From: a virus
Strand: one strand, 5' to 3'
DNA: 55,502 nucleotides
IMG/VR virus record: IMGVR_UViG_3300038701_001228
Coordinates: 1-55,502 of that record
Positions 13,085 through 55,502 of the stretch are shown here, piece by piece. The notes beneath the pieces were generated by a model. It did no database searches. It worked only from the letters and a program-made list of their open reading frames with translations, and had not been told where the DNA came from. The position numbers and the translations under genes were made by a program. Every line of letters starts with the position of its first letter. Within the stretch, counting starts at the first letter, position 1.

Positions 13085-13090
13085 GGGACG

Positions 13091-15073: not shown

Positions 15074-15083
15074 GGACTAGATC

Positions 15084-15890: not shown

Positions 15891-15901
15891 GGAAATGAAT
15901 C

Positions 15902-17485: not shown

Positions 17486-17534
17486 TGCGCTTTGAGCGTG
17501 GACAGGTCCAACAGGACGATAAAAGGAGGCCATC

Positions 17535-17792
17535 ATGGCACTGGAGAAGAAAACGATTAACGACAAGATCGAGGTTCTGCAACTGGCAGCGGGCTATCCC
17601 TGCGTGCAGGTCCGCACGGCCACGATCATCGCAGAGGATGGCGTGGAGATCAGTCGCACCTTCCACCGCCATGTGCTGACGCCTGACGCTGATCTGAGCG
17701 CAGAGGATGCGGACGTGGCGGCCATTGCCAGCGCCGTGTTCACCGACGAAGCCAAGGCGGCCTACGTCGCAGCGCAGGAGGCAAGCGAATGA
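17535..17792 (+). CDS. Hypothetical protein
   Basis: 85-aa ORF with SD AAGGAGG. Confidence 0.5.
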   Translation: MALEKKTINDKIEVLQLAAGYPCVQVRTATIIAEDGVEISRTFHRHVLTPDADLSAEDADVAAIASAVFTDEAKAAYVAAQEASE

Positions 17793-18079
17793 CCACCATC
17801 GCATCGGCGAGCATCACCGCCCAGAACACCTTCACCGACGCCGTACGGCTGGAGGGGTACTTCAACCTGTCCATCTCTGGCACGTGGGCGGCGACCGTCA
17901 CGGTCCAACGCAGCATCGACAACGCGACATGGGTAGATGCGGACACCTTCACCGCCAATTCCGAGGAGGTTGGTTTCGAGCCTGAGCTCATGTGGTACCG
18001 CGTTGGGGTAAAGACAGGGGACTTCACTTCTGGTACCGTCGTCCTGCGCCTCGGGCGCGAAGATAAGGACCGCCACTAA
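17789..18079 (+). CDS. Hypothetical protein
   Basis: 96-aa ORF with ATGA overlap to the previous gene. Confidence 0.5.
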   Translation: MTTIASASITAQNTFTDAVRLEGYFNLSISGTWAATVTVQRSIDNATWVDADTFTANSEEVGFEPELMWYRVGVKTGDFTSGTVVLRLGREDKDRH

Positions 18080-29900: not shown

Positions 29901-32900
29901 CTAGCGAGGGAGTTCCAGTCGAAGACACCCAAGGGCAAGAAGCTGCCCGAGCGCGTGTCGAAGAAACCCAAGCGGAAGAAGCCGTAACGCCGACGTCGCC
30001 GCCCGAGCCTGCACCTGAACCCGCGATCACGCGAGGCGACCGCGCGCCGCGCGACATGCCGCCGAACACCGCATGGGATCAGTATGTCGCCCCCTTTCTC
30101 CCTGTGGAGTTCGGCGCGCGGAACCTCGGCGCGCTTCAGAAAAAGTGGTCCGACGCGGTTAAGGCCGGGCGTGGCAACTACGACGCAGCGCGCAGAATCT
30201 TGGCGGATTCGCCCACCTACAACGTGCTCGAGGCGCAGGAGCTCTACAACACCAGTGCCGACCCGACGGTCCGGGACGATGCGCTGAGCGTCATGCTGGA
30301 GGTCGCCTTCGCCGGCGAATCCACTGGGAACCCGTCCGCGGCGCTGGGCAAAAAGACCCCGGCCCGCTTCGCGCAGGATTTCCTCAACGAGTTGAGCTGG
30401 GCACGGGCTGATCGGGAGACCCTGCTGGAGTTCGCCACACTCGACAGCATCGCCGAGGAGCGCACCGCAGAGAAACCCACGGCGCAGATGCGCGCGCTGA
30501 ACGAGCTGCTCGAGGCCACGGGCGTCCTGAACACCGCCGAGAACGTGGACGGCGACACCACCTCGAACCCTGCGGCAGAGCTCACCGAGGAGATCGTCGA
30601 GTACAACAAGAACCCGCACACCCCCGAGGGGTGGGAGCAAAATCGCCTGCGCGAGCGGGTGCGGAACTTCACCGCCTACGCCCGGGAGAACCCGGAGGCA
30701 TGGGGCTCACTCGTGGAGGGCACGACGCCCCTCTACCAGTACCTCAAGAGCGGGTATGTGAACCTGCGTGCCGGGCGCATCACGCCCGATGCCAACGCGA
30801 CGGACCCCCGCACACAGGCCCGGGTGACCGAGGGTGGCAGCACCGAGGCTGGTGGCGCGCTGACCGGCGGCTTCGCCCCGCGCACTGGTGCAGTCAGGGG
30901 TGGGTACCAAGGGAAGTACAGCCGCGTCGATTACAACGACATCTCCAACGCGCTGGATGCCAACGGTAAACCCCTCACCGGCCCCATGCCGGTGGGCAAG
31001 CAGAAGATGGTCATCAAGACGTTCCTCAAGCGGCTGCGCAATGCGCCGCGCGTCTACGACTTCAAGGATCAGGCCGACCTGCGCCGGAAGAACCCCGAGC
31101 TTTACCGCCGCGCCGCGGCAGCGCGCCCCGAAGGCGACTTCGACACGACCAATGCGGCTGGTTACTCCTTCGGCGACGGCGAGGTCATCGTCTTCACCGA
31201 CCGGATCGCCAACGACACACACCTCAAGTTCGTGCTGGCACACGAGACCTTCGGCCACTACGGCCTGCGGGGCGTGCTGCCCGCCGCCCAGTTCGACAGC
31301 CTCATGGAGGGGCTGTACGACACCACCCCGTCGATCCAGCGGTCGGTCGATGCGGCCATGATGGCCAACCCGGAGCTTGGCAAGGCCGAGGCAGTGGAGG
31401 AATACCTCTCCGACTTCGCTGCTGCGCTCGACAGCAGCATCGTGCTGCGGGTGTGGAAGGCCATCAAGAACGCCCTCAACCGGCTGGGGGTCACGTTCGG
31501 CGACGACTCGGTCCGCTACCTGCTCGACCAGTCGCGGCGCTATGCCCGTAGCCCCCTCCAAGGGTTCCCGATGGACCTCAACGGGGTCGCGCAGCGCGCG
31601 TACGACGTGGAGACGGGGGCAGCAGCGCCCGGTAGGTACAGTTCGACAGGTGACTTCTTCAAAGACCAGCGGTCGCTCGACGAGTACGCCCGCATGGGGC
31701 TTCCGGTACCGCGGAGCTTCCAAGAGGGGCTGGACGCCATGGGCGGCCAGTGGAAGAACTTCGGCGACGGGTGGCGTGGGTTCAAATCCACCTTCCTCAG
31801 CCTGAACAACTTCGATTCGCGCACCAACCCGGGCCTCAAGCGGTTGCACGATGTTCTGCAGGAAGCCGTTACCATCGCCATGTCGGTGCGCAACACGCTG
31901 AACGAGACCATGCGCCCGGCGCTGAACCGCGGCGTCCTTGGCTTCGGCGGGATGAGCAACACCGAGTACGACCAAGCCAACAACCTGCTCCATCACGCGC
32001 GTATCCGGGCGATCATGCGCCTTCGCGACGACCCGGTCACAAGCCGGGAGCCGCTGGTCGTTTTCGACGAGGCTGAAGGACAGTTCAAGCGCACCGATGA
32101 GGTCAAGCGGCTGGATGATCTGCACCGCCTGAAGTTTGAGGACGCGCGCGATGGCTTCAAGTACGTGTTCACCAACACCGATGCCGATGGCAATGTCGTG
32201 AGCACCGAGACCATCCGGGTGCCGGGGATCGACGGACTGACCAAAGGCAGCCGGGTGTGGCTGGCCTATGAGGCCGCGCGCAAGGCGTACATCGACACCG
32301 AGCTGAGGCTCCTGACGGCGCAGCTGTCGGCGGGCCGGGTCCGCGAGTCCACCGCACTGAAGGAAATCGGCAGCGTGGTGCCCGACGGCACGCTCACCAC
32401 CTCGGAGCGGGCGCTCATGCGCATTGCCATCCGCCGGTACCAAGAGCTGTACGAGGCTGGGTCGTCGACCAACGCCGAGGGGGCCATCGTCTATCTGGAC
32501 CAGTCGATGCAGACGGCCAAGGAGTTCGCTAAGGCGTTCAACATGGCAGTGATCGCCAACGAGGACGCGGCGACCGACACCGAGGCGCAAGCGCGGAACA
32601 ACGCGGTCAAGCAGTTCTTCGACCAAGCTGTTGCTGATGACGTCGTCGCCCAGATCGAGGCGTTCAAGCGGCGGGCTAACTTCGCCGATGACCGGTTCGT
32701 CGTGCAGAACAAGATCATCGGCCTGCACACGCAGGCCATGCAGGAGAACGGGGCCAGCGACTTCGCACGGAACTCCATCGTCGGACAGTACTCGCCCATC
32801 GTGCGCACCGGCGACTTCGAGATGCGGCTGGTAGCCAAGGACGCCCGCACCGGGCGGGTCGTCTCGCTCGATGGCGGCTACAAGGACGGCCTGCTGTACT

Positions 32901-43311: not shown

Positions 43312-45167
43312 CAGTGCGCCTCCCCATAATTTACACCCACGTCCGCCTCGCAGGCAACCGGCAGGTCCGGTGCCCACTTGGGCGCGGTGGACATCACGTC
43401 CATCATGAACGCCTTGCACTCGTCGGCCTGTGCCTCGGGCACCACGCAGACGATCTCGTCGTGGACCTGCAGGGCGACGGGGTAGCGCCGCCCGATCTTG
43501 GTCATCTGCTCAGCCACGACGATACGAGCGACCGCTTGGGTGATGTTCTCCACCATCTTCCCGCCGTAGAGCTTGGTCCACGTGAGCTCCGGGGTCTCCT
43601 CGCCCGCCACCCGGGCCTTGATGAACTTACGGTAGGTCCGCGGGTCGTTGATGTACTCGAACCCGTTGGCGGTGCGGCGCAGGGCCGGGTACCGGATGCG
43701 CATACCGTTGGGCAGGATCAGCCCATCGGCATCGAAGGGGATCAGGTCGCACACCTCGCCCTTCGCCCCGGCCTCCAGACCGTTCAGCGCGTGGTTGCAC
43801 CGGTTCCAGAAGGCTTGGATGCGGTGGTACTTGTTCCTGTACAGGTTGACGATCTGCTGCGCCTCGTGGCTCTCGACCTTCACCGAGATGAAGCCGGTGG
43901 CCAGCGAGTGTTGGAACTTGGCGGCACCCATGCCGTAGCCCAGCCCGAGGATACAGGTCTTGCCGACGTGTCTCTCCACCTTGTCACTCTTGGTGACAGG
44001 CCGCTGGTACACATCGGTGGCGAACTCGGAATACACGTCCCGCCCCTCACGGAAGGACTGCACGAGGTCGTTCTGCCCGGCGAGGTAGGCCACCAGTCGC
44101 GCTTCGATCTGGCTCGAGTCACAGGCCACGACCACGTGGCCGTCGGGGGCAGCCAGCGCCTTGCGCAGCGCACCCCCTCTCGGCAGGTTCTGCAGGTTCA
44201 CCTTGTCCCCGCCGCTGAAGCGACCGGTGTGCGCCCCGTAGTAGTTGAGCATGATAGGCAGCGGCCCGCGCTCGGAGATTTCCAGAAACCGCTTGGTGCG
44301 TGTCTCCTCGATGGTGCTCTTGGTCCCCAGCCGGGCCTCGACGATGGTGCGCACCGCCGCCTTGGGGTGTTCCAGCAGGGCCGTGAACGCGGTGTCGTTC
44401 TTGGCAAAGGCGTAGGTCTGCTTACCCGTGGTCGGGCTGGTTTTCATGGGTGGCTCCACGCCCATCGCCCGCAGCAGATCAGCGAACTTGTTGTTGGACA
44501 TGAGGAACTTCTTGGCCTTCTCCTCACCGCCCAGCTTCTCCAGCAGCTTCCGCTTGCGCTCGTAGATACCTTCGAGGTGGGCGTCCAGCACCACCGGGTC
44601 GAGCTCCAGCTTGGGCTCGGTGTACATGCGCAGCGTTTGGTCAATCACCAACAGCTCCTGCTTTGGGAACTGCCGGGCCATCTTCTTGAACAGGCGGTAA
44701 GTGAGGTTGGTGTCTTGGATGCAGTAGGCGGCGTAGGCGTCCATCTGCTCGGGCGTGAAGTCCCGGCGGCGCATCCCCATGGTGCGCATCACCTCGTCGC
44801 CCTTCTCGCCCAGCTTGTAGTAGGTCGCCAGCGCCTTGAGGCTGCCGCCCACGGTCATCGAGTGCAGGGGCCGGGCCATGCTCAGGGTATCCAGCCACAG
44901 CTTTGGGCGGATGCCGAACTTCCACGAGAGGATCGCTCCGTCGAAGGCTGCGTTGTGGGCGAGGATCGCCTTGTCGCTGTAGTCGATGCCGTGGAGGAAG
45001 CCTCCGGGGTCAGCCCCGGTGTACCAGTCCACCTCTTGGTCGTTGACCTTGACCGAGACACCGACGACCTCGAAGCGGGGGTCACGGATGTATGCCTCGG
45101 TCGTCATCTTGGACAGGCTGTAGTCCCTGTCGTAGTAGGTCTCGAAGTCGATGGTCACGATGTCCAT
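43311..45167 (-). CDS. Family A DNA polymerase with N-terminal 3'-5' exonuclease
   Basis: 618 aa. Exo I IDFETYY, motif A VVACDSSQIEARL, motif B RHVGKTCILGLGYGMG, motif C LQVHDEIV. Confidence 0.9.
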   Translation of the reverse strand: MDIVTIDFETYYDRDYSLSKMTTEAYIRDPRFEVVGVSVKVNDQEVDWYTGADPGGFLHGIDYSDKAILAHNAAFDGAILSWKFGIRPKLWLDTLSMARPLHSMTVGGSLKALATYYKLGEKGDEVMRTMGMRRRDFTPEQMDAYAAYCIQDTNLTYRLFKKMARQFPKQELLVIDQTLRMYTEPKLELDPVVLDAHLEGIYERKRKLLEKLGGEEKAKKFLMSNNKFADLLRAMGVEPPMKTSPTTGKQTYAFAKNDTAFTALLEHPKAAVRTIVEARLGTKSTIEETRTKRFLEISERGPLPIMLNYYGAHTGRFSGGDKVNLQNLPRGGALRKALAAPDGHVVVACDSSQIEARLVAYLAGQNDLVQSFREGRDVYSEFATDVYQRPVTKSDKVERHVGKTCILGLGYGMGAAKFQHSLATGFISVKVESHEAQQIVNLYRNKYHRIQAFWNRCNHALNGLEAGAKGEVCDLIPFDADGLILPNGMRIRYPALRRTANGFEYINDPRTYRKFIKARVAGEETPELTWTKLYGGKMVENITQAVARIVVAEQMTKIGRRYPVALQVHDEIVCVVPEAQADECKAFMMDVMSTAPKWAPDLPVACEADVGVNYGEAH

Positions 45168-45622
45168 CAGTCGTCTCCGATATGGGTGATGGTGACACCA
45201 GCCTCGTCGAACTGGCGGTGGGTCAGGGCGAGGTCGTCCGCCCAGCGGGTGGCGAACTCAGGGGTCGGGTGAGGCCACATCACATGGCTGATCCCGGCTT
45301 GGATCACCAGCGCAGCACACTGGGAACAGCAGGGGTGGGTGACGACGAGGGTGCAGCCCTCAAGCGGTGCCGTTGCGAACATGATCGCGTTGGTCTCGGC
45401 GTGGATGGTCATCCGGTACTTGGTGTTCCGGTCCTTGAGGCGGGCAGGGTCGTCCTTCACCCCACGTGCAAAGCCGTTGTACCCGGCGCTGACGAGTCGG
45501 CGCTTGGGGTCGAAGATCACGGCACCCACTTGGGTGCTCGGGTCCTTGCTCAGCGTGGCGACCTGCCGGGCCATGCCCAGCGCCCAGTCCCGCAGCTTGC
45601 GAGTATCTAGTGGATAATCCAT
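45167..45622 (-). CDS. dCMP (deoxycytidylate) deaminase
   Basis: 151 aa with the zinc-binding motifs HAETNAI and PCCSQC. Confidence 0.8.
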   Translation of the reverse strand: MDYPLDTRKLRDWALGMARQVATLSKDPSTQVGAVIFDPKRRLVSAGYNGFARGVKDDPARLKDRNTKYRMTIHAETNAIMFATAPLEGCTLVVTHPCCSQCAALVIQAGISHVMWPHPTPEFATRWADDLALTHRQFDEAGVTITHIGDD

Positions 45623-45646
45623 TCGCTTCTCCTTATGGTAGTCAGG

Positions 45647-45663
45647 CCCGGCATGGTGCCGGG
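45647..45663. other. 7-bp stem / 3-nt loop hairpin upstream of the dCMP deaminase gene
   Basis: cccggca-tgg-tgccggg is a perfect inverted repeat. Confidence 0.5.
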
Positions 45664-45712
45664 TGTCCGCGCGACCCCGGCGTTTAGCCCACGTCGGTGT
45701 CTATTGGTCTGG

Positions 45713-45745
45713 CCCCCGGCGCTCACCCGCCGGGGGTTTTCTTTT
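45713..45745 (+). terminator. Plus-strand-oriented intrinsic terminator inside the minus-strand arm
   Basis: cccccggcg (45713-45721) / cgccggggg (45728-45736) form a perfect 9-bp stem with a 6-nt loop, followed by ttttctttt on the plus strand only. Confidence 0.6.
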
Positions 45746-45954
45746 CACCCATCGACCGCTCTCCTCAGTTCCTCTAGCGTCCTGCGCACCTGCCAGTCGT
45801 TGCGCTTGGACGAGTTGTTCGCCACGCAGACCATCGGCTGATCCTCGATCTGCACGAAGTAGTGGTCTCGCTTCTTGACCAGTCGCCACGGGACGGGGAG
45901 GGCGGCGATCACTCGCCGCACCCGTTTGTCAATCTGTCGTGGTAGGTCTGTCAT
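45745..45954 (-). CDS. Hypothetical protein
   Basis: 69 aa from ATG 45954. The track start 46011 is an extension into the upstream gene. Confidence 0.4.
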   Translation of the reverse strand: MTDLPRQIDKRVRRVIAALPVPWRLVKKRDHYFVQIEDQPMVCVANNSSKRNDWQVRRTLEELRRAVDG

Positions 45955-46387
45955 CGGTCCCGATCCCCCGTGCTTCAAAGGCGGTGAGAAACGCCAGACA
46001 ACAAGCCGCATGGGCGAGGTGGCTCATACCCGTCTCGGGGTCGTTGTCCTCCCCGCTCCACCACGCTGCCATGTGCCGACGCAGGGCGGCGTAGGGCCGG
46101 CCCCACTTCATGCCCAGTTCCCAGTTACGCTCGCCATACTTGGCTGCCCCGAAGGTCAGCACCTTGGCGATGGCCTCCTCGACCTCCGGCGGGATCAGAT
46201 CATACCGGGCCTTGCCGGTGTCGAACTTCAACCCCTCCACCGGCTCCCGCCAGTTCTCGCTGGCGATCCGGTCGATCAGACCCTGTGCGTAGTCCACATC
46301 CACGTCACAGTTCATCGCCACGTCCTCAGCCGTGGCCTGCCGGTTGGCCAGCAGATACCGCCAGCACCGTTCTTCCGTTGGTGTCAT
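45929..46387 (-). CDS. Putative nucleoside-triphosphate pyrophosphohydrolase-like protein (phage dATP/dGTP diphosphohydrolase-type N-terminal domain)
   Basis: 152 aa from ATG 46387 (SD GAGGAG). From memory, the block FDTGKARYDLIPPEVEEAIAKVLTFGAAKYGERNWELG...RHMAAWWSGEDNDPETGMSHLAHAACCLAFL resembles that family. Confidence 0.4.
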   Translation of the reverse strand: MTPTEERCWRYLLANRQATAEDVAMNCDVDVDYAQGLIDRIASENWREPVEGLKFDTGKARYDLIPPEVEEAIAKVLTFGAAKYGERNWELGMKWGRPYAALRRHMAAWWSGEDNDPETGMSHLAHAACCLAFLTAFEARGIGTDDRPTTTD

Positions 46388-46388
46388 G

Positions 46389-47180
46389 TCACTTCTCCTC
46401 AATCGCGCCGAACCGCTTGCGCAGCTCAATGCTCTGGTTCTTCACGACCTTCTCGATGCGCTCATAGAGGTCCATCGAGTTGGAAGCCGAGCCCCAGATG
46501 TTCACTTCACTCGCTGCGAACATACGGATCAGGTCCGTGCCGCAGTCGCAATCCTTGATTGCTTTGTATAGTATGTCAAGCTCTTTCGGGTCATTCCACA
46601 CCGGTCTATCGACCCACCCGGTAGGCGATGCCCGTTCCTCGGCGATCAGTTTGTCGAAGGCTCCGAGCCGGGCGGCGACCTTCAGCTTGCGCTTCCATGC
46701 CCTGAGTGCAGCGAGCCAGACCTTGCGGTTCGCCTCGTTGACCTTGGGTTTGAACGCCTCATCGGGCTTGGGGTTGAGACACTTGCCGGTGGTCAGGTCG
46801 AACGTGAGGCCGGTGTAGACAATGGGCGAGTTGGTCGGGGTCAACATCCACTCCCAGTTTAACCCGCCGCCATCGTCGAGGTTCTCCCGGTGCTCCACCC
46901 GGTATTTCTTGTACCCGACCCGGGCCCAGCGGAACGGCAGGTTCCGGTTCATCGTGGCGCTGAGGGACTGGGCCACCGCGTAGGATGCCTCCCCGTCGGT
47001 GGTAAACATGAACGTGTTGTCAGGAAGGAACCGCCCGACCTCGTGGTCATACACCCTCACCGCATACTCGTCCCCGTCTTGGAACAACCGCCAGCCTGCG
47101 CCATTCATGGGCCGGCCCTTGGCCTTGTTCCGTGCCTTCTCCATGTGCAGCTGCGCTGCCTTGTAGCTTGAGATCATCAC
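46389..47180 (-). CDS. Hypothetical protein
   Basis: 263-aa ORF with no motif recognised. Confidence 0.5.
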   Translation of the reverse strand: MMISSYKAAQLHMEKARNKAKGRPMNGAGWRLFQDGDEYAVRVYDHEVGRFLPDNTFMFTTDGEASYAVAQSLSATMNRNLPFRWARVGYKKYRVEHRENLDDGGGLNWEWMLTPTNSPIVYTGLTFDLTTGKCLNPKPDEAFKPKVNEANRKVWLAALRAWKRKLKVAARLGAFDKLIAEERASPTGWVDRPVWNDPKELDILYKAIKDCDCGTDLIRMFAASEVNIWGSASNSMDLYERIEKVVKNQSIELRKRFGAIEEK

Positions 47181-47440
47181 TTCACTCCCAGTCGTTTCTT
47201 CGTTGCGGCAGCGACCAGTCGCTCCCGTTGCTCCTCGCCGGTCGGCAGGGCGTCCTTGGCGAACACCAAGGGGGTCACGTCCTGCTCCTCACCGACGTTC
47301 TCCATCTCTGCCCAGCAGTCGCTGCACAGCCACATGCGGCACAGAGGTGCCCATGCCACCTCCTCGGGGTGGTAGCAGGACATCTCCGGTGCGCCCTCGT
47401 GGCAGCTCTCGCACACCGCCAGCAGCTTAGGCAGCCTCAT
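47177..47440 (-). CDS. Cys-rich (zinc-finger-like) small protein
   Basis: 87 aa with CESC...C...C...CSDC spacing. Confidence 0.5.
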   Translation of the reverse strand: MRLPKLLAVCESCHEGAPEMSCYHPEEVAWAPLCRMWLCSDCWAEMENVGEEQDVTPLVFAKDALPTGEEQRERLVAAATKKRLGVK

Positions 47441-48041
47441 CGCAATCCTCCTCGTCTTGGTCCCACTCGTTCGCCTCGATGGTCTCCCACACCGCCTCGT
47501 CGCTGGTGAGGTGGTCGTACTCAGCCTTCAGCTTGCTGTAGAGGTCCTGCATGTAGGACCGCCACTGCTCGATCACGTCATCCTCGAAGTCCTCCATCTC
47601 GCGCTCCAGCTGTCGCTGCCAGTTCTCCACGATCTGCTCGTGGAACTCGGTCGGCTGGTCCACCATGCCGGTGAGGGTGTCGCTGCTCACCCAGAAATCG
47701 GTGCAGTTCTCGTGGTTGTAGCGGCCACGGTGCTTGCACTGGACGTAGAGCCCGCCGCCATGCTCCAACAGCTTGCGGATCATGGGGTATTGGTCCTTGT
47801 GGTGATGGTCGAGGTACTTGAGCGTGTCGTCCAGCGACCCCTCGAAGCAGGCCCCGTCACCCTGCGAGGCGAACCCGCTGAAGAGCATACGCCACACCGT
47901 GATGCCGACGGCCTCCATGTCCTCCTTGAAGTGCTCGTAGACGCAGTCCCACCAGTAGTTGAGCTCGACGTTAATGTAGCGGTGCTTCTCCAGCAGCCGT
48001 TCGCGTTGCGATGAGCTCACCATTTTCTCCGATCCAGACAT
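47427..48041 (-). CDS. Acidic hypothetical protein
   Basis: 204 aa (198 aa if ATG 48023 is used; both have an SD). SGFASQGDGACFEG block and a very acidic C-terminus (EANEWDQDEEDCDEAA). Confidence 0.5.
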   Translation of the reverse strand: MSGSEKMVSSSQRERLLEKHRYINVELNYWWDCVYEHFKEDMEAVGITVWRMLFSGFASQGDGACFEGSLDDTLKYLDHHHKDQYPMIRKLLEHGGGLYVQCKHRGRYNHENCTDFWVSSDTLTGMVDQPTEFHEQIVENWQRQLEREMEDFEDDVIEQWRSYMQDLYSKLKAEYDHLTSDEAVWETIEANEWDQDEEDCDEAA

Positions 48042-48246
48042 GTGCTTCTCCCTTGGCTACGTCCAGCAGGACGGTCTTGAAAAACTCGTTCTCCGTTGCG
48101 TGCAGCTCGGCGTGCTTCGACGCCAAGTCGCGGTCGTTCTCGGCCTTGGCCAGCTGGGCCGTCAGCTTCCTGATCTGGCGCTCTTGCCAGCCGGTCCAGA
48201 AAAAGGCGGCCACAAGGGCCGCCGTCATGATGAGTAGGTCTGTCAT
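47971..48246 (-). CDS. N-terminally membrane-anchored small protein
   Basis: 91 aa with [19 protein letters not shown]. Overlaps the downstream gene by 53-71 nt. Confidence 0.4.
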
Positions 48247-48839
48247 TCAGTGATCTGTCCTGTTTTCTTGAAGCGATAGAGCGCGGTCTCGTATTTGATC
48301 CCGAGTTCTGCCGCTGCATGTTTCAGATACCGCCCATCCGGCATAAGTACTCCGTCCTTTCTCTTGCGCTGATTCTGTGTTTGCTCTTTGCGGGTTGCCC
48401 ACCGACAATTCCACGGGGCATAAGGCCCATCGTTATCGACCCGCTCGATGGTGTGCTGTGGTGTAGGGCGCTGACCCATGTCCTCACGGAACCGTTGGTA
48501 GTCATCGGCCCATTCAGGGCACACCGTGATGCCCCGTCCACCATAGTTGTGGTAGGACAGGTTGGTGGGATCGAGACAACGCCGCTTCATGTTCTGCCAG
48601 ACAACGAACTCTGGCTCCCGCTGCGCACCCCGTCTCGCCCCGCCATGTAGGGTGGACTTCTCGGCAGTGACTTCCGCCCTTAAACAACCACAAGACCGTG
48701 TGTGTCCTGACCTCAGCTTGTCAGATGGTACGATACGCTCGGCACCACAGTCACACATACACCGCCAGTATTTCCCTTGGTGTCGGGCGACGACAGTGAG
48801 CCGCCCGAACTTTTCGTTTGTCAGGTCAATACGATACAT
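48243..48839 (-). CDS. Putative HNH-family / homing-endonuclease-like DNA-binding protein
   Basis: 198 aa with FGRLTVV...WRCMCDCG...SCGC...[13 protein letters not shown]...NCRWAT. From memory this pattern occurs in many free-standing phage endonuclease-like genes. Confidence 0.4.
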
Positions 48840-48861
48840 GGTCTAGCCCTCTGGTATGGGT

Positions 48862-49998
48862 TCAGCCCATCATACATACTTCTCCAAATGGAGCCTTGTC
48901 AAGACCTGTAGATACCCAAAGCACAGGGCAGTCGGGTGCGTCACCGAAGTCGTGACAATACAGGTCGGTGAGGAACACGATCCCGGCGGGTTCGATGTCG
49001 TTCTCCTCGATGTATTTGAACACGGGGCTGAAGGCGGTGCCGCCACCGCCACGGGGGTTGAACTCGAACTCGTCGTCACGTGTCAGGGTATCGACGGCAC
49101 AGACCTCGTGGCTGAAGAAGATCATGTGCAGCTTGGACGGCTTGCCGTCCTCGTGAACCACCCGGCACTCGGCACCATACTGGTTCGCCTCGTCTTGGCT
49201 GATCGACCCGGACATATCCACGGCGAACACCAGCTCGCCGAGGACCTCGCCGCTGACAGTAGGCATATACAACCCTTGGCTGAGGAACCGGCGGTTGGGC
49301 CGGGCGAAGCTGCGCTGGTCGTTCTTGGCCTTCTGCACGAACTGGTGCAGTCGTTCACGCCAGTCGACCTTGGGCTTGAGCACCTCGTCCACCAGCCGGG
49401 CCATGTTGGCGCTCATCTTGCCCATCATCTTGGCGGCCTGTGCGGCTTGGGCCACCTTGATCTTCCACTCGGCAGCCTCTTGGGCCTGCTCGGCTTGGCT
49501 GCCCTCGCCGTCCTCGAGGTCGTCGCCGGGTCCACCGGGTCCGTCACCGTCGCCGTCACCATCTGGCAACAGGTTGTAGATACCGTCGCTCGTGCCGCCG
49601 CCGTTGGTGTAGATGTTCTGGTCGAGGCAGCCACCCTCGATGAACTTGCCAATGCCCTCGTCCACCAGCAGCTGGTTGATGACGTAGTCGGCAGCCTTGT
49701 TCCACTTCTTGGGGTCGCGGGAACCGCGGCGGTAGTTGTGCTCCAGCATGGGGTGCAGACACTCATGAGCCACGAGGAACTTGAGCTCCTCGTCGGTGAG
49801 CGGCTCGATGAAGTCGGCGGAGTAGAGGACCCGCTTGCCGTTGGTGCAAGCGGTAGGGGCCCGGCCAGAGGCCCGCAGCTGCTCCTCGAACTCCGGCGTC
49901 ATCAGCTCCATGGGCATGTTGAGAGCCACCGACCCGATGAACGGGTGTTCGAGGATCAGGCTCGTCTTGGCTTTGCTCAGTCGCTTCATCAGGTCCAT
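48862..49998 (-). CDS. vWA-domain protein with an N-terminal HExxH metallopeptidase-like domain (DUF2201 / CobT-like partner of MoxR ATPases)
   Basis: 378 aa with HECLH (LVAHECLHPMLEH) in the N-terminal half and the MIDAS motif VDMSGSIS in the C-terminal half. Confidence 0.7.
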   Translation of the reverse strand: MDLMKRLSKAKTSLILEHPFIGSVALNMPMELMTPEFEEQLRASGRAPTACTNGKRVLYSADFIEPLTDEELKFLVAHECLHPMLEHNYRRGSRDPKKWNKAADYVINQLLVDEGIGKFIEGGCLDQNIYTNGGGTSDGIYNLLPDGDGDGDGPGGPGDDLEDGEGSQAEQAQEAAEWKIKVAQAAQAAKMMGKMSANMARLVDEVLKPKVDWRERLHQFVQKAKNDQRSFARPNRRFLSQGLYMPTVSGEVLGELVFAVDMSGSISQDEANQYGAECRVVHEDGKPSKLHMIFFSHEVCAVDTLTRDDEFEFNPRGGGGTAFSPVFKYIEENDIEPAGIVFLTDLYCHDFGDAPDCPVLWVSTGLDKAPFGEVCMMG

Positions 49999-50171
49999 TA
50001 GTTTTTCTCCTTCTTGCGCTTCACTTTGGTGACGGCTTCCTCCCAGCCCAGATCACCAAGCAACCCGTTGTTAAGACGGGCTTGCTCGTAGTCAGCAATG
50101 TCTGCCGCCTCGTCGATGGTGGCTGCCTCTACCGTACGGTAGAGGGCCAGTTCGATCTCAAACTTAGGCAT
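49998..50171 (-). CDS. 57-aa hypothetical protein (not in the ORF track)
   Basis: Translated by hand: MPKFEIELALYRTVEAATIDEAADIADYEQARLNNGLLGDLGWEEAVTKVKRKKEKN. SD GGGAGGA. Overlaps both neighbours by 1 nt. Confidence 0.5.
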   Translation of the reverse strand: MPKFEIELALYRTVEAATIDEAADIADYEQARLNNGLLGDLGWEEAVTKVKRKKEKN

Positions 50172-51025
50172 CAGTTCAGTCCTCCCATGAAGGCTGCCAT
50201 CTTGGCAGCGATGTCGTTGGCTTCGGTCGCTGCGGTCTCCCGGACCTTGGGGTCGGCCCGCAGGGTGTCGGGCTGGATACCAGCCAGCTTGGCCTCGACC
50301 TCTTGGCGCATGGCCTCGAGGTTGGGGTCCTCCATCACGTTGAGGCGAGGCAGCAGGTCACACAGGTCGACGAGGTGCTCCACGGTGGAATCCCGGAAGA
50401 TCGCCTTGGGGTCGTCCATCTTATCGGCGTAGTGCTTCACCTTGTCATAGAGCCGCTGCCACACGTCCTGCATGGCCTGCTGCCCAGCCTGTTTGACCCG
50501 GGCCTCGACCTCATCGTGGATACGCTCCAGCTCTGCGTCGGCGATGTTCACCCTGAAGTCGTTGTTCGGGACAGGCATGACCTGCATGTCCATCTTGAAC
50601 TTGTCGCCGATCTCGTGAGCCTCGGGGTAGTCGGTCGGCTTGTATGCTGCACCGAGAAACCGCTGCGCATCCACTACCAGCTGGGGGTAGGCCGGCACGA
50701 ACCGGTTGACCAGCGCCTCATACTCGGCCCGCTCTTTGCGGAACTCGGTCATGAAGGCGAGGTAGTTGGCGGTCGGCAGGATTTGGGTGCCCTTCACACC
50801 CCACGGCAGGGTATTGTCGTAGAACCGCTGGCGGATCAGGCTGGCCTTCTTCTTGATGTCATCCAGCAGGTCACACATCGGCAGCAGGCTCTTGTGATAC
50901 CGCCCGGCGTTCTGCTGGACGCCCTTGATGTTGTTGGTCTCGGCGCTGATCTCCTTGTCCAGCTTGTTGGCAGACCAAGTGGAGATGTTGAGTTGCACGA
51001 GGAGGGCACGGTCAGAGAGTTTCAT
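50171..51025 (-). CDS. DUF3150-like protein
   Basis: 284 aa from ATG 51025 (SD AAGGA). The N-terminal block LVQLNISTWSANKLDK and the ~290-aa length match my memory of the DUF3150 family. Confidence 0.45.
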   Translation of the reverse strand: MKLSDRALLVQLNISTWSANKLDKEISAETNNIKGVQQNAGRYHKSLLPMCDLLDDIKKKASLIRQRFYDNTLPWGVKGTQILPTANYLAFMTEFRKERAEYEALVNRFVPAYPQLVVDAQRFLGAAYKPTDYPEAHEIGDKFKMDMQVMPVPNNDFRVNIADAELERIHDEVEARVKQAGQQAMQDVWQRLYDKVKHYADKMDDPKAIFRDSTVEHLVDLCDLLPRLNVMEDPNLEAMRQEVEAKLAGIQPDTLRADPKVRETAATEANDIAAKMAAFMGGLN

Positions 51026-51036
51026 GTTACGTCCTT

Positions 51037-51639
51037 TCACTTCGCTTTGGGGATGGTGGGCAGGTCAGCGCCCAGTTTACGCAGGTCGTCCACCACAGGG
51101 GCAGCGACGGCGGGCAGGAGAGCGTTCTTGTCGCCCTCCTTGGGGATCAGGTGATGCAGCTCAGGCTCGAGCACATCATACAACCGCTTGACGGTCGTCA
51201 CGCTGCGGAGGGTGTTGAACAGCCGGGACTGCACGCTGGAGAGGAGTTCCTCCTGCTCCTTGTGCTTGGCGTAGTAGCCACTGGCGATGATGGCGTCGGA
51301 TATGGCCCCATGCAGAGGGCCAGCGTGGTGGCCCAGCCCGTCGATCCGGATGCAGAGATCACGGCGATCCGTCGGATGGCCGTAGAATTTGTGGTAGCCG
51401 TAGCACCCGCTGCCATCCCGAATCGTCATCCCGGAGTTCCCTTCCCTCAACCTGACGGGGAACGTGTTGAGGTAGGGGCGCTGCTTCAGGTCGTCATAGG
51501 CCATCTGGATGTGCAGCGGCATGTGGTCCCGGAGGACATTCTGCACCACGGCAGCCATCAGGGGGTGGTAGTCGATGTTCGGCACCGAGGCCATCGCCTT
51601 CTTGAGGATCATGTTGCGGATGTCGGTGTTCAGTCTCAT
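51037..51639 (-). CDS. Hypothetical protein
   Basis: 200-aa ORF. Confidence 0.5.
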   Translation of the reverse strand: MRLNTDIRNMILKKAMASVPNIDYHPLMAAVVQNVLRDHMPLHIQMAYDDLKQRPYLNTFPVRLREGNSGMTIRDGSGCYGYHKFYGHPTDRRDLCIRIDGLGHHAGPLHGAISDAIIASGYYAKHKEQEELLSSVQSRLFNTLRSVTTVKRLYDVLEPELHHLIPKEGDKNALLPAVAAPVVDDLRKLGADLPTIPKAK

Positions 51640-51642
51640 GTC

Positions 51643-51888
51643 TCAGTCCTTTCTGAGGGTTGGTGCGGCTCCGGTCAGCCGGAGGAACGCTTGGTAGGTG
51701 ATGAACTGGCGGGGATACTTCCCCGCCAAGAACTGGTCCCATGTGATGGGACGGGTGGTGTAGACCTTGTGCTCGGTGTAACTCATACGCGCACGCTGCC
51801 ACTCACCGGTGAGGGCGAACATTTCATCACCGGTGACTCGCCCGGTGATGCGTAACCACCGGGCAAACGTGGGGCCTTTGGCCGTCAT
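51643..51888 (-). CDS. Hypothetical protein
   Basis: 81-aa ORF. Confidence 0.45.
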   Translation of the reverse strand: MTAKGPTFARWLRITGRVTGDEMFALTGEWQRARMSYTEHKVYTTRPITWDQFLAGKYPRQFITYQAFLRLTGAAPTLRKD

Positions 51889-52109
51889 CTTGTCAGCCTC
51901 CGCTGGGTGGAGAACACAAGGAACAGGTCGGGTCGCTTACGTGCCAGTGAGGCAGCGTAGGAGGCCCTTGGATGCGCACCGGCATTGGTGAGCATCAAAA
52001 ACACTATCCCGTCCTTGGACACCGCACCGCGATCCACAAGGTAGTCACGCCATAACGCAATCGCTTGTGGATCATCGGTGAAGAACTTGTCCGGGTCAGA
52101 ACAGCACAT
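51885..52109 (-). CDS. Hypothetical protein
   Basis: 74-aa ORF with ATGA overlap. Confidence 0.45.
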   Translation of the reverse strand: MCCSDPDKFFTDDPQAIALWRDYLVDRGAVSKDGIVFLMLTNAGAHPRASYAASLARKRPDLFLVFSTQRRLTR

Positions 52110-53091
52110 CTTGGTGTGCCAGAGCCCACTTGGTAAAGGCTGCCGTGTTGGTCAGGTCGGTGTCCCGACGCACTGCCATGGACATACTGAGCACGGCGAA
52201 CTCGGCAGGCATCCGGCTGGTGTATGTCACCATCCGTTCGAGGTTGCCCTCCGTGGCCCGTTCAGCGATGGCACCGGACAGGGCGTAGAGCGTGGCGGGG
52301 TCGGTCGGCACGTCAGCCGTGTCGGGGTTCATGAGGATCGCATCGGGGTTGGGCAGCTTGCGGTAGATACGAACGAACCCGACGAACTCAGCCGCTGCAC
52401 CCTCACCGACGGCACCCTTGAAGCACTCATACTCAGCCTCGGCAGGCACCTTGCCGAGCACTGCGGACACACCCTCGACCCAGCTACGGGGTGTGGGGTT
52501 CACGTCCCGCTGGGGGTCGAAGTCGTGGAGGAGGTGAGGCCGGAACCGGATGAACGCAACGACCATGGGGTTGACGTTGTGGTCAATCATCCAGCTGGTG
52601 CTGTCATCGAGATGGGTCTCGAACTCGAGCACGGTCTCACGGTTGCGGAGGTGGGACAGAACCCGGTTGGCCCCAGCCCTGTCGGACTGGCGGTTGCCGG
52701 TCGACACCACCGTCCAGCCATCGGCGAGAGGTGCCCCGTGGAGGTTCCGAGCCTGCTGGATGTTGGCCAGCACCTTCTGAAGGTCGGCGTTGGCTTGGTT
52801 CCTGTCGTCGAACAGCAGCACCCCGCCACCCTCGGTGCCGGCCTTGCCCTTGACGGGATACCAGTCGGGCAGCTTGTAGCTGAAGGACGAACCGTCAGCG
52901 TCGGGGTAGGGTATGCCGAAGTCCTCCACCAGCATGGTGGGCATGTGCTTCTCGACGATGGGCAGCCCGAGGCTCTCGGCCACCTCGTGGACGATGGTGG
53001 TCTTGCCGCCACCCGGTGCCCCCTCGATAGCGACAGAGCGACCGGCAGGGATCAGGGCAGACAGCGTGGACTTGAGGAGCGATGCTCGCAT
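52096..53091 (-). CDS. AAA+ ATPase, MoxR / CobS-like
   Basis: 331 aa. Walker A GAPGGGKT, Walker B VLLFDD, sensor-like VVSTGN. SD GGAG. Confidence 0.75.
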   Translation of the reverse strand: MRASLLKSTLSALIPAGRSVAIEGAPGGGKTTIVHEVAESLGLPIVEKHMPTMLVEDFGIPYPDADGSSFSYKLPDWYPVKGKAGTEGGGVLLFDDRNQANADLQKVLANIQQARNLHGAPLADGWTVVSTGNRQSDRAGANRVLSHLRNRETVLEFETHLDDSTSWMIDHNVNPMVVAFIRFRPHLLHDFDPQRDVNPTPRSWVEGVSAVLGKVPAEAEYECFKGAVGEGAAAEFVGFVRIYRKLPNPDAILMNPDTADVPTDPATLYALSGAIAERATEGNLERMVTYTSRMPAEFAVLSMSMAVRRDTDLTNTAAFTKWALAHQDVLF

Positions 53092-53106
53092 TTTCGTTTC
53101 TCCATT

Positions 53107-53177
53107 TGGCTTGACTCATCAGTGCCGTGGTAGCCAACCACGACAGACGGGCCGCTTGTGTAGCGGCCCGTTTCGTC
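53107..53177 (-). ncRNA. Type II hammerhead ribozyme (HHR-c)
   Basis: Minus strand: GAC-GAAAC-GGGCCGC-uacacaa-GCGGCCC-GUC^UGUCGUGG-uuggcua-CCACGGCA-CUGAUGA-GUC-AAGCCAA. Full catalytic core. Predicted cleavage between 53146 and 53145. Confidence 0.85.
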
Positions 53178-53179
53178 TC

Positions 53180-53998
53180 TCATCCGTGCTTCCGAATCTG
53201 GCTGATGGCGTTCTGCACCTGCTGGTAGGTCTCGAAGTAGGGTATGGTCTGGGTGTCGTAGCACGTCTCGTACTGGTAGACGGCCTCCCGGAGTGCCCGC
53301 AGCTCAGTCTCCACCGGGACGGCGTTACTCATCCGGGCTGTGATCTCAGCCCAGCCCTTCTCGCCTTGGCTGAGGTAGCCAAGGGCCTCCTTCCCCGACC
53401 AGCCGTAAGGATTAATGTTGTATCTGCGACCGAACTCAGCCACCCCGAGACGTATCTTGGTCTCCAGCCACAGCTTGAACGTGTAGTAACCAGCCTCCTT
53501 GAGGGCCTGCTTACCCTCCTTGCGGTTGAGGTATGGCACCTCGAACGGCACCGCTCCACCGACCAGCTCCCAACCGGTCTCTTTGGGCTGGACGACGAGG
53601 TGATCCGGGGTGTGGTAATACCGCCCATTCACTTCCGTGATGTTGTCCGGGGCAGGGTAGTCCCGATCAGACCACATGGGGCTGACATGGGGACCGAGGA
53701 GCGACCAGACGAACCGGGTGGTAAGGCTGGAGGCATAAGGCTCAAGCTCGATGAGGTTGTTGTTCCCATCCCCATAGGAGCGGTAGCGGATCACGTCGGT
53801 GGAGTAGAGGCGAACCACGATGTCCCCCGAACACTCCTCCTGACGGATCGTCATGTTGTCGTTCCCCCGTCGACCCAAGGGACGGGTGTTCTGGTCGGAT
53901 CGACCACGGATAGGCTTGATGGCCTTCCACTTCTTGAAGGCGCTGTCGTAGGACAGCAGACGGCTCTCAGGCAGGATGGTGTTGTTTGCACCGATCAT
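53180..53998 (-). CDS. Hypothetical protein
   Basis: 272 aa from ATG 53998 (SD GGAG). The track start 54055 translates through the ribozyme and is rejected. Confidence 0.55.
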   Translation of the reverse strand: MIGANNTILPESRLLSYDSAFKKWKAIKPIRGRSDQNTRPLGRRGNDNMTIRQEECSGDIVVRLYSTDVIRYRSYGDGNNNLIELEPYASSLTTRFVWSLLGPHVSPMWSDRDYPAPDNITEVNGRYYHTPDHLVVQPKETGWELVGGAVPFEVPYLNRKEGKQALKEAGYYTFKLWLETKIRLGVAEFGRRYNINPYGWSGKEALGYLSQGEKGWAEITARMSNAVPVETELRALREAVYQYETCYDTQTIPYFETYQQVQNAISQIRKHG

Positions 53999-54016
53999 GG
54001 TGTTCTCCAGTTTGTT

Positions 54017-54082
54017 GTGGCTTGTCTCGTCAGTGTGCTGGTAGCCAACCAGCACAGACCACCCCGAAGGGTGGTTTCGACA
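54017..54082 (-). ncRNA. Type II hammerhead ribozyme (HHR-b)
   Basis: Minus strand: UGUC-GAAAC-CACCC-uucg-GGGUG-GUC^UGUGCUGG-uuggcua-CCAGCACA-CUGACGA-GACA-AGCCAC. Predicted cleavage between 54057 and 54056. Confidence 0.85.
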
Positions 54083-54083
54083 G

Positions 54084-54401
54084 TCACAGGTTGAGATACT
54101 TGGCGACGGAGTAGGCGTTCACAGACAGCCTCACGACCATCGTGCCGGGCTTGTGGTCAGGGAAGTAACCAGTGGCCTCCCAACCAGCGGTGCCAAGGGA
54201 CGTGGTCCCGTCCCACATATTGGCCCTGACCATGTCCCGGATATGGTCGATGGAGGATCGACCGGGGTTGATGACCTCCAGCACCTTGGCTGTCTGCTCA
54301 AGGCTATGCTCGTCGAACTCGATGTTGAACCCTTGGTTGATGCAGTCAGCCTTGCGCTGCCACTCGTCACGGATTTGCTGCTCAGTGGTGGACGAAAGCA
54401 T
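54084..54401 (-). CDS. Hypothetical protein
   Basis: 105-aa ORF with SD GGAG, flanked on both sides by hammerhead ribozymes. Confidence 0.55.
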   Translation of the reverse strand: MLSSTTEQQIRDEWQRKADCINQGFNIEFDEHSLEQTAKVLEVINPGRSSIDHIRDMVRANMWDGTTSLGTAGWEATGYFPDHKPGTMVVRLSVNAYSVAKYLNL

Positions 54402-54421
54402 GTCACGTTCTCCAATGTGTT

Positions 54422-54486
54422 GTGGCTTGTCTCATCAGCACAGCAGGAGCCACCTGCTGTGGACCACCCCGAAGGGTGGTTTCGAC
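54422..54486 (-). ncRNA. Type II hammerhead ribozyme (HHR-a)
   Basis: Minus strand: GUC-GAAAC-CACCC-uucg-GGGUG-GUC^CACAGCAGG-uggcu-CCUGCUGUG-CUGAUGA-GAC-AAGCCAC. Predicted cleavage between 54462 and 54461. Confidence 0.85.
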
Positions 54487-54614
54487 TAGGAAACCCAGAG
54501 GAAGTTGGTGTTGTTGGAGTATCGACGCTGGTAGTCAGCGTAGGACACCCAGTCGAACCACACTGTCTCACCAGACAGAGGGCAGCGAAGGTAAACGTCA
54601 CCGTAAGTGTTCAC
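54486..54614 (-). CDS. Possible 42-aa protein (not in the ORF track)
   Basis: GTG 54614 overlaps the upstream stop (GTGA), with SD GGAG 9 nt upstream. Sequence (M)NTYGDVYLRCPLSGETVWFDWVSYADYQRRYSNNTNFLWVS. The last base of its TAG stop is the first base of HHR-a. Confidence 0.4.
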   Translation of the reverse strand: MNTYGDVYLRCPLSGETVWFDWVSYADYQRRYSNNTNFLWVS

Positions 54615-54886
54615 AGCTCAATCTCCAAAGGGGCACAGTGAGGCTGATAGTGGATGTGGACATGGGTGTACCCATACTCCCGGAGGTGACGACGTTCGTC
54701 GACAGCTACCACCGAGCCGTAGTAGGGACTCGCTTCCGTCGTGATGACGAACTCTTTACCAGCTGCCCAGTCATAGCCAGCGTCAGCTTGGTGGAGATAG
54801 GTCCGTCGACGAGGACGGACTGTCACGATACGGTGGTCATGGTGATCGGTGAGATCGGCAAGTTTAGCCCAGACGGAAGTAGTCAC
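54611..54886 (-). CDS. Early hypothetical protein, tandem paralogue of 54883..55104
   Basis: 91 aa. Its C-terminal half aligns with the upstream neighbour (LREYGYTHVHIHYQPHCAPLEIEL vs LRDMGYTHVEFRLGAQSLEVAL). Confidence 0.5.
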   Translation of the reverse strand: MTTSVWAKLADLTDHHDHRIVTVRPRRRTYLHQADAGYDWAAGKEFVITTEASPYYGSVVAVDERRHLREYGYTHVHIHYQPHCAPLEIEL

Positions 54887-55104
54887 AGTGCCACCTCCAG
54901 AGACTGAGCACCGAGACGGAACTCAACATGGGTGTATCCCATGTCACGTAGGGTCGGTTCCTCGTAGCAGTCAATGGTCAAACCTGACAGACGGTCATAA
55001 CCACGGACTAGCACAGGCTTCCCTGATCGGTAATCGTTAAGCACTTGATGGGGGTTGGTGTAGGTCGAGAGAGGTGCAGTGGGCTGCACAGACAGGATAG
55101 TCAT
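54883..55104 (-). CDS. First early gene, hypothetical protein (paralogue of 54611..54886)
   Basis: 73 aa from ATG 55104 (SD AAGGAA). The track start 55203 extends into the AT-rich non-coding region. Confidence 0.5.
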   Translation of the reverse strand: MTILSVQPTAPLSTYTNPHQVLNDYRSGKPVLVRGYDRLSGLTIDCYEEPTLRDMGYTHVEFRLGAQSLEVAL

Positions 55105-55375
55105 GTGTATAGTTCCTTGGATTTGGTATATACCAGCGGGGCCTGCCCCGACGGCGAAGCCAAGCTGGCACGACCGGCTCGGCGTGTCAAGTTTGGTTGC
55201 CAAGCCCTTGATTTCGCTCGATTTTCGCTCGGCATGTTTATTAAGAAAGTTGACAGTGGTTTAGGTGTTTTATCTGTAGGGGGTGCGAAACTTACTTTTT
55301 AAGTGTTTGAAAACAAAGGAACTATCTATTTATCTATCTATCTGTTGAAAATAAACACGGCCCCTGAGAGATAGG
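55105..55375. promoter_or_regulatory. AT-rich non-coding region upstream of the early (minus) arm; candidate early promoters / origin
   Basis: No credible ORF. Contains the minus-strand AAACTTGACACGC motif (55183..55195; second copy at 227..239), a plus-strand TTGACA at 55250, and the left arm of the ATCTAT inverted repeat. Confidence 0.55.
55320..55343. repeat. Left arm of the 24-nt imperfect inverted repeat (partner 58..81 / 55433..55456)
   Basis: aactatctatttatctatctatct compared with the reverse complement of 58..81: 20/24 identical. Confidence 0.7.
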
Positions 55376-55502
55376 AGATCGTTGCCATTTACAACGAATA
55401 AGGGTCGCCTACGGAAGAAGGGTTAATTTTAGAGATAGATAGTATAGTAGATAGTTAATTATAACTAAACTAACCTACCCCCTGTGGTATCCCGCTGGTT
55501 TT
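55376..55502. repeat. Second copy of the 127-bp end sequence (identical to 1..127)
   Basis: Exact identity to 1..127. Confidence 0.95.

Follow-up and report, generated by a model that had tools for sequence, protein, structure and literature searches.

Three type II hammerhead ribozymes in the gene spacers at the head of the leftward arm of an uncultured phage genome

In the first 7 kilobases (kb) of the leftward arm of the viral record IMGVR_UViG_3300038701_001228 the genes overlap or nearly touch, and the only sizeable gaps are three spacers, with a true intergenic length of ~84-88 nucleotides (nt) each. What fills these gaps, and what might it do for the phage? The whole record was analysed as one window of 55,502 nt, whose positions are used throughout, as they were in an earlier note made from the sequence alone; that note had read the three spacers, on the minus strand, as type II hammerhead ribozymes (HHR-a, HHR-b and HHR-c) and had named a search with the Rfam hammerhead covariance models as a check. 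We find that the three elements are almost certainly true type II hammerheads, and we consider it probable that they cut the leftward, probably early, transcript co-transcriptionally into separate messages.

The search came out in favour of the ribozyme assignment. Rfam cmscan of the whole window, on both strands, gave three matches above the gathering score, all of them to RF02276 (Hammerhead_II, gathering score 37 bits), all on the minus strand and all full-length (model positions 1-66), HHR-b lying just 0.7 bits over the cut-off. The three spacer sequences written out in the earlier note were found exactly so in the window; the end points it gave for them were slightly short, the Rfam matches reaching 1-3 nt past them. 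A permissive Rfam scan (E<=1) of the 55.5 kb yielded one extra match, which is noise, and no other ribozyme family, and no fourth hammerhead was found in the window with R2, the second of two covariance models (R1, then R2) that were built in the course of the analysis. The elements and their parts, in base pairs (bp) where helices are concerned, are:

54420-54487, minus strand: HHR-a, type II hammerhead, Rfam 45.8 bits (E 2.9e-6); stem II 54486-54484/54431-54429, GAA 54483-54481, stem III 54480-54463, C17 54462, stem I (9 bp) 54461-54439 with loop UGGCU, core CUGAUGA 54438-54432, tail AGCCA 54427-54423
54015-54082, minus strand: HHR-b, type II hammerhead, Rfam 37.7 bits (E 4e-4); stem II 54081-54079/54026-54024, stem III 54075-54058, C17 54057, stem I 54056-54034, core CUGACGA 54033-54027, tail AGCCA 54022-54018
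53104-53178, minus strand: HHR-c, type II hammerhead, Rfam 40.6 bits (E 6.7e-5); stem II GAC/GUC 53177-53175/53115-53113, stem III 53171-53147, C17 53146, stem I 53145-53123, core CUGAUGA 53122-53116, tail AGCCA 53111-53107

Along the strand all three elements have the same order, namely the 5' strand of stem II, GAA, the stem III hairpin, C17, the stem I hairpin, CUGANGA and the 3' strand of stem II. The 5' and 3' ends are thus in stem II while stems I and III are capped by loops, which is the type II permutation, and the core bases (C3 U4 G5 A6 N7 G8 A9 and G12 A13 A14) are intact in each copy; on both counts the sequence and the Rfam match bear out the earlier note, which had claimed a type II order with an invariant core. 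The A15.1-U16.1 pair, formed by A8 with U25 (HHR-a and HHR-b) or with U32 (HHR-c), is followed by C17 in all three copies, and since C17 stands at 54462, 54057 and 53146, the predicted 3' products begin at 54461, 54056 and 53145, the positions at which the earlier note had placed the 5'-OH ends. Stem III consists of 7 bp with a cUUCGg loop in HHR-a and HHR-b, and of 9 bp with a 7-nt loop in HHR-c. The 5' halves (26 nt) of HHR-a and HHR-b are identical, and their cores, tails, spacers and Shine-Dalgarno (SD) sequences are nearly so; the minimum-free-energy fold of either is exactly the hammerhead secondary structure. HHR-c, folded alone, has its free-energy minimum in a competing fold, with GACG paired to CGUC.

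The helices of the three copies had been seen to covary in the earlier note (stem I is wholly different in HHR-a and HHR-b, and stems II and III are different in HHR-c), and 27 distinct hammerhead copies from related uncultured phages agree with this. In an alignment of these copies, which was fitted to the covariance model and therefore favours helices I-III but not the pseudoknot outside that model, standard pairs occupy 97.8% of the cells, compared with 72.7% in shuffles and 33-46% with the partners slid; both sides have changed at 19 of the 24 pairs, and none of 500 shuffles reaches any of the observed measures. By helix, the paired fraction is 100% in stem II, 99.5% in stem III and 98.3% in stem I (both-side changes at 16 of these 19 pairs). 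The CUGANGA and GAA core is invariant and the A15.1-U16.1 pair is present in all 27 copies, position H17 being C in 26 relatives and A in one. A second claim of the earlier note, a pseudoknot between loop I and the 3' tail, holds as well: the 5-bp UGGCU/AGCCA helix is present in HHR-a, HHR-b and HHR-c, is paired to 93% in the 27 copies with compensatory changes at three of its five pairs (UGGCU/AGCCA to UGGUU/AAACC in relatives), and recurs as UCGCUU/AAGCGA, GACCU/AGGUC, UAGCCU/AGGCUA and UCGCCU/AGGCGA in unrelated viral contigs. Judged by these changes, the pseudoknot is real and the same as in the published type II consensus; the RF02276 model itself carries a UGG...AGCCaAA consensus. The repeated peptide DETSHN(K/T)LEN, which the earlier note had put down to the RNA repeat, was found only in open reading frames (ORFs) that read through the ribozymes. 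By analogy with the class, the elements are expected to undergo Mg2+-dependent self-cleavage 3' of position 17, leaving 2',3'-cyclic phosphate and 5'-OH ends.

On the coding strand, each of the three ribozymes is preceded by a stop codon and followed by the SD and start of the next gene; the genes concerned are:

54486-55104, minus strand: first cistron block upstream of HHR-a, three overlapping small ORFs (~73, 91 and 42 amino acids; from the ORF list and the sequence)
54084-54401, minus strand: ORF of 105 amino acids from HHR-a to HHR-b, SD GGAG 54413-54410, stop UGA 1 nt before HHR-b
53180-53998, minus strand: ORF of 272 amino acids from HHR-b to HHR-c, SD GGAG 54008-54005
52096-53091, minus strand: MoxR-like AAA ATPase gene, first after HHR-c, SD GGAG 53103-53100, phrog_1297 (E 5e-67)

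The fit is tight on both sides. At HHR-a the UAG stop (54488-54486) reaches into stem II, its G being the first base of that stem, and at HHR-b and HHR-c a UGA stop precedes ribozyme position 1 by 1 nt; beyond the AGCCA tail the three window copies continue with 8-14 nt, GGAG, 8 nt and AUG. Of the 27 copies in the phage family, 26 have the upstream stop at a distance of -3 to +9 nt from ribozyme position 1, and the next start usually follows 9-21 nt past the tail with a GGAG-type SD. The arrangement extends beyond the family. At least 119 stretches of IMG/VR viral contigs that are otherwise unrelated carry CTGAYGAGNCAAGCCA as an exact motif, and among the matches listed R2 found 83 hammerheads, in 75 stretches. 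Counted over the 76 distinct copies among these listed matches, and set against 820 random positions rather than against real intergenic spacers, a stop codon is within 3 nt in 46 of 76 (67 of 820 at random) and a start with an SD in front of it within 25 nt in 51 of 76 (92 of 820 at random). Two loci hold large type II arrays in which almost every gene of an operon is bounded by a hammerhead: L135 (IMGVR_UViG_2974780611_000001) has 10 by R2 in ~7 kb (6927-13917), 7 of them above the Rfam cut-off, and L148 has 8 by R2 in ~5 kb (1661-6541), 8 of 8 above it.

The position of the ribozymes in the genome bears on which transcript they would act upon. An exact 127-bp direct terminal repeat (window 1-127 = 55376-55502) is found at both ends, so the window is a complete phage genome of ~55,375 bp; the phage is uncultured, podovirus-like and apparently non-integrated, no integrase having been detected among the window ORFs by Pfam and PHROG searches. 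The minus strand is occupied from 55104 down to 35221, with small ORFs first and replication genes further on, behind this region:

55105-55502, ahead of the leftward arm: non-coding, AT-rich, with repeats of the GATAGATA type; 55376-55502 is the terminal repeat copy

This AT-rich, GATAGATA-repeat region is probably a promoter or origin region. The label "early operon" given to the locus in the earlier note is plausible from position, as the ribozymes come within 2 kb of the non-coding control region, ahead of the replication genes. Promoter and terminator consensus scans of 50000-55502 stayed at background level, and they found no terminator-like or promoter-like site between the ribozymes on the minus strand.

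Sequence, core, fold, covariation, pseudoknot, placement and conservation in relatives are directly observed, and with them in hand we propose the following course of events. When RNA polymerase passes a spacer, stems III and I would fold locally, the pseudoknot of loop I UGGCU with the AGCCA tail would dock stem I against the 3-bp stem II, and the RNA would cut itself 3' of C17 at 54462, 54057 and 53146. Because just 3 bp of stem II join the two halves, the products should separate and their release should be fast, and because the topology is that of type II, the upstream RNA would keep stem III and the downstream RNA stem I. Each upstream message would end ~26-33 nt past its stop codon with the G+C-rich stem III hairpin, GUC and a 2',3'-cyclic phosphate; each downstream message would have its 5'-OH end at the foot of the 9-bp stem I hairpin and retain core, tail and SD, with GGAG and the start codon ~45-50 nt from the 5'-OH end. 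The resulting messages would be those of the three-ORF block, of the 105-amino-acid gene, of the 272-amino-acid gene, and of the ATPase with the genes downstream of it. Neither 3' exonucleases nor poly(A) polymerase acts well on an RNA that ends in a hairpin with a cyclic phosphate, and a 5'-OH at a hairpin base escapes the 5'-monophosphate-dependent entry of RNase E. The ends of these messages would thus be poorly attacked by all of these activities, polyadenylation included, so that neither its neighbours nor host RNases would determine how stable each cistron is and how well it is translated. There is precedent for several of these steps. According to the text of the 2011 paper on prophage ribozymes, prophage transcripts with triple hammerhead arrangements were cut at every site while they were being made in vitro, and it was proposed that gene-length mRNAs are produced in this way (PMC3088659); Desulfovibrio vulgaris has three type II hammerheads close to phage genes, and cleavage by these takes place in vivo (PMC8782182).

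Relatives show how widely the arrangement is kept. The ATPase retrieved 80 viral loci at 68-90% identity, on contigs of up to 55-62 kb, and R1 and R2 detected 33 hammerheads in 23 of the 80 loci, in addition to the three of the window. At least one hammerhead is present in 16 of the 19 loci with an ATPase identity of 82% or more and in 7 of the 61 more distant ones; a gathering scan of 13 hammerhead-less relatives (143 kb) found no other Rfam ribozyme class. HHR-a has an ortholog in L002/L004, copies orthologous to HHR-b stand upstream of the 272-amino-acid gene in L002, L005, L007, L009 and L016, and copies orthologous to HHR-c stand directly upstream of the ATPase gene in L007, L011, L014, L016, L027, L079 and L081. 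Orthologs of the 105-amino-acid ORF in the closest relatives are 81-98% identical, and the 272-amino-acid gene has a 66% identical ortholog (IMG/VR contig L001/L016) that is likewise flanked by two type II hammerheads. Among the ATPase relatives the presence of the 272-amino-acid gene largely tracks that of hammerheads. L015 has a 39% identical copy of this gene without a hammerhead, and L017, L019, L036 and L048 have a hammerhead beside other genes.

The two hairpins of the ribozyme behave differently in this comparison. Stem I tends to go with the downstream gene, the same UGUGCUGG being found in five of seven copies upstream of the 272-amino-acid gene, while the two stem III types (CACCC with a tetraloop, GGGCC with a long loop) are swapped around that gene between L016 and the window:

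L016 2783-2857 and 3680-3747, versus window 54082-54015 and 53178-53104: junctions with swapped stem III

As stem III is swapped while stem I stays with its gene, recombination between ribozyme copies is suggested.

Several points weigh against processing into separate messages as the role of these ribozymes. Cleavage, its co-transcriptional timing, the effects on stability and translation, and the early timing are the parts of the proposal that we infer, and we count this on the negative side, together with the statement of a 2019 review that the purpose of such ribozymes is undefined (PMC6765202). The tight packing may reflect mere compaction of a phage genome: minimal spacers are the rule in it, so adjacency to stop and start is expected for any intergenic element. 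The predicted mean unpaired probability of the SD is 0.65, 0.62 and 0.40 in the cleaved and 0.77, 0.75 and 0.32 in the uncleaved RNAs. The best overall cultured relative, Rhizobium phage RHph_TM3_14A (capsid 55%, DNA polymerase 39% identical), has no Rfam match in 15000-60889 (45.9 kb of its 60.9-kb genome). Above all, the ribozymes are dispensable at a given junction: L015 and most of the relatives with 68-76% ATPase identity are without any, and L011, L014 and L027 have the 105- and 272-amino-acid orthologs with no ribozyme between them and spacers of 23-29 nt:

L014 3905-3965; L011 4070-4120; L027 4076-4126: hammerhead-less junctions upstream of the 272-amino-acid gene

Since they are dispensable at individual junctions, any benefit of the ribozymes is probably quantitative. 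At its junction L014 keeps CACAAGCCAACAAGGAG, which matches the hammerhead tail and SD, and the upstream ORF overlaps the next start (TAATG); this single example suggests that a ribozyme was deleted there and that translational coupling took its place. A different idea about cleavage, that it unmasks the SD, is not supported, predicted accessibility being about equal before and after.

A rather unlikely alternative is that hammerhead plus SD cassettes are selfish or near-neutral and spread by recombination or gene conversion, cleaving without benefit to the phage. The patchy presence at orthologous junctions of close relatives agrees with such spread, as do the shared 5' half of HHR-a and HHR-b together with their nearly identical core, tail, spacer and SD, the exchange of stem III between L016 and the window at the junctions flanking the 272-amino-acid gene, and the presence of the same subtype in viral contigs that are otherwise unrelated (at least 119 stretches). 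Compensatory change that preserves structure, core and pseudoknot nevertheless means selection on activity, whoever the beneficiary; stem I stays with the downstream gene, as it would in vertically inherited, position-specific elements, and neither a transposase nor an integrase nor a repeat boundary was found beside the copies.

It is a speculative and, to our mind, doubtful thought that hammerhead plus SD forms a general, portable phage "cistron boundary" module, in which cutting is gated by ribosomes and the core serves as a recombination point for the exchange of gene cassettes between phages. Each cassette may come with a stem I of its own at the 5' end and a stem III of its own at the 3' end, and cleavage, and hence the fate of the downstream message, may be coupled to translation of the upstream gene. 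The stop codon rule (46 of the 76 distinct copies among the matches listed, compared with 8% of random positions), the exchange of stem III with stem I retained, the stop/start overlap that replaces a ribozyme in L014, and the arrays of 8-10 ribozymes elsewhere all fit this module.

Conditional cleavage taken by itself, translation-gated or otherwise, so that the cut rate reports translation of the upstream ORF and is regulatory instead of constitutive, is in our judgement improbable. With the stop codon touching stem II or overlapping it, the ribozyme would be unfolded by a ribosome that terminates there; the stop is within 3 nt of ribozyme position 1 in nearly all family copies and in the same 46 of 76 unrelated copies, and in HHR-a the G of the UAG stop doubles as the first stem II base; regulated cleavage is also raised as a possibility for phage hammerheads in the text of PMC3088659. 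The geometry is, however, what minimal spacers throughout the genome would produce anyway, copies with gaps of 10-180 nt also occur, and the elements have no aptamer-like extra domain.

Cleavage followed by ligation, in which the excised gene-length RNA would be circularised, or the outer fragments spliced, by the reverse hammerhead reaction or an RtcB-type ligase, is very unlikely. The fragments would bear the 5'-OH and 2',3'-cyclic-phosphate ends that this needs, an entire chimeric hammerhead could form from the two ends of the fragment between HHR-a and HHR-b because both have GUC/GAC as stem II, and hammerhead-flanked circular RNAs are known in eukaryotic retrozymes (PMC7761336). The ends of the fragment between HHR-b and HHR-c would place GAC opposite GAC, and this A.A mismatch in a 3-bp stem II disfavours a circularised message of the 272-amino-acid gene; for comparable prophage arrangements, circular or spliced products were sought and none was found, according to the text of PMC3088659. 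That the elements are chance matches or ordinary hairpins (terminators, RNase sites) is effectively refuted, in spite of the narrow score of HHR-b and the competing fold of HHR-c, by three matches on one strand in three consecutive spacers (E 4e-4 to 3e-6), by the presence of all invariant core bases, by strong covariation in all helices and the pseudoknot, and by the lack of a U-tract after the hairpins.

As to what is new, type II hammerheads, the pseudoknot of loop I with the 3' tail, and clusters that flank phage genes were published in 2011 (Perreault et al., PMC3088659, as its text has it), and the present locus is therefore a further example of a known element type; phage hammerheads of all three types are listed in reviews (PMC6765202, PMC7761336). 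Set against RF02276 and the type II ribozymes in the text of PMC3088659, the window copies have the same topology, core, very short stem II and UGG../AGCCA pseudoknot, with no structural difference; they are new sequences from an uncultured lineage, with a cUUCGg-capped stem III in HHR-a and HHR-b. The same text reports prophages of Agrobacterium tumefaciens, Azorhizobium caulinodans and Clostridium scindens that likewise have several ribozymes on one strand within ~2 kb, also flanking single genes or short blocks of unknown function, with the same role in making gene-length mRNAs proposed (PMC3088659). Unlike those clusters, the ribozymes described here are at the very start of a replication-gene arm, and their 55.4-kb genome is complete, has a terminal repeat but no detected integrase, and is apparently not integrated. 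The D. vulgaris hammerheads are of the same class and near phage-like genes, two of them ~300 nt apart, but they are on a bacterial chromosome and their cleavage was proven by cyPhyRNA-seq (PMC8782182), whereas the window copies are known from sequence alone. The packing between stop and SD and the gain and loss at junctions are documented here and are not mentioned in the text of PMC3088659. Quantified packing of stop, ribozyme, SD and start, pairs of junctions with and without a ribozyme, and large arrays elsewhere are modest additions, for which priority is not claimed.

Two other systems resemble the locus in role or design. The early genes of phage T7 are, as Dunn and Studier reportedly described, separated by sites for processing by RNase III; these, too, are structured intercistronic elements that yield separate mRNAs with hairpin-protected 3' ends, an analogy of role and not homology. 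The T7 sites depend on host RNase III and give 5'-phosphate and 3'-OH ends, in contrast to the window elements, which are predicted to cut themselves and to leave 5'-OH and 2',3'-cyclic phosphate. Synthetic ribozyme insulators of the RiboJ type, said to have been introduced by Lou et al. in 2012, also place a hammerhead directly upstream of the ribosome-binding site, where self-cleavage removes the upstream context and leaves a defined 5' leader with a hairpin at its front. RiboJ itself was engineered from the type III hammerhead of a satellite RNA, with a hairpin added, while the window elements are natural, of type II, and provide the upstream message with a hairpin as well.

The genes around the ribozymes and the relatives of the phage give little hint of function or host. 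The five ribozyme-flanked small ORFs have no Pfam, PHROG or NCBIfam match, and the 272-amino-acid protein has no PDB sequence match and, by tblastn, no match in 50,697 phage records. The AAA_5 match of the MoxR-like ATPase is weak (Pfam); its gene opens a tightly overlapping block, and the protein is at most 31% identical to those of N4-like and other phages. Megablast for a close cultured phage gave no match, and a search for a host or prophage copy with the ATPase in 185,579 species genomes gave just ~30%-identity matches, in metagenome-assembled genomes. After the small ORFs the leftward arm encodes the MoxR-like ATPase, an Nmad5-domain protein, a DUF2201/VWA protein and dCMP deaminase, and further on a family A DNA polymerase, a PD-(D/E)XK nuclease, an SNF2 helicase and a primase/helicase; the first four of these (the DUF2201/VWA protein being metallopeptidase-like), grouped at 45167-53091 on the minus strand, may form a nucleotide or DNA-modification module. 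The plus strand carries the structural genes at ~965-35224 (portal/adaptor, major head, tail fibre, tail spike, internal virion protein and an unannotated ORF of 2749 amino acids). The AT-rich non-coding DNA between the divergent arms comes to ~1.2 kb in all (55105-55502 plus 128 to ~964), and a repeat block in L001 (1638-1770), which gave a spurious microRNA match, resembles its GATAGATA-type repeats. G+C content is 0.48-0.50 in 14001-18000 and ~0.62 elsewhere; this stretch spans the tail fibre and tail spike ORFs (13091-17485) and looks like a recently exchanged host-range module. The 2749-amino-acid ORF (26975-35224, plus strand) has no Pfam or PDB match, its C-terminus alone matching phrog_11358, a family without assigned function whose members are ~3400 amino acids long; the ORF may encode an internal virion protein of giant size. 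It was also considered as a virion RNA polymerase of the N4 type, an identity that would define early transcription, and this finds no support from Pfam or PDB.

The purpose of hammerheads in bacteria and phages has been a question since their discovery there in 2011, and this locus, although no answer by itself, is a clean natural case: a complete genome with three intact ribozymes in the only real spacers at the head of its early/replication arm. The compact units of 68-75 nt could be natural insulator parts for synthetic operons. For the phage family itself, close relatives with or without a ribozyme at the same junction form natural pairs, with a stop/start overlap as the substitute at least in L014, and these pairs, together with the tight packing, suit a reporter study of what the ribozymes may contribute to mRNA stability, translational uncoupling and ribosome gating.

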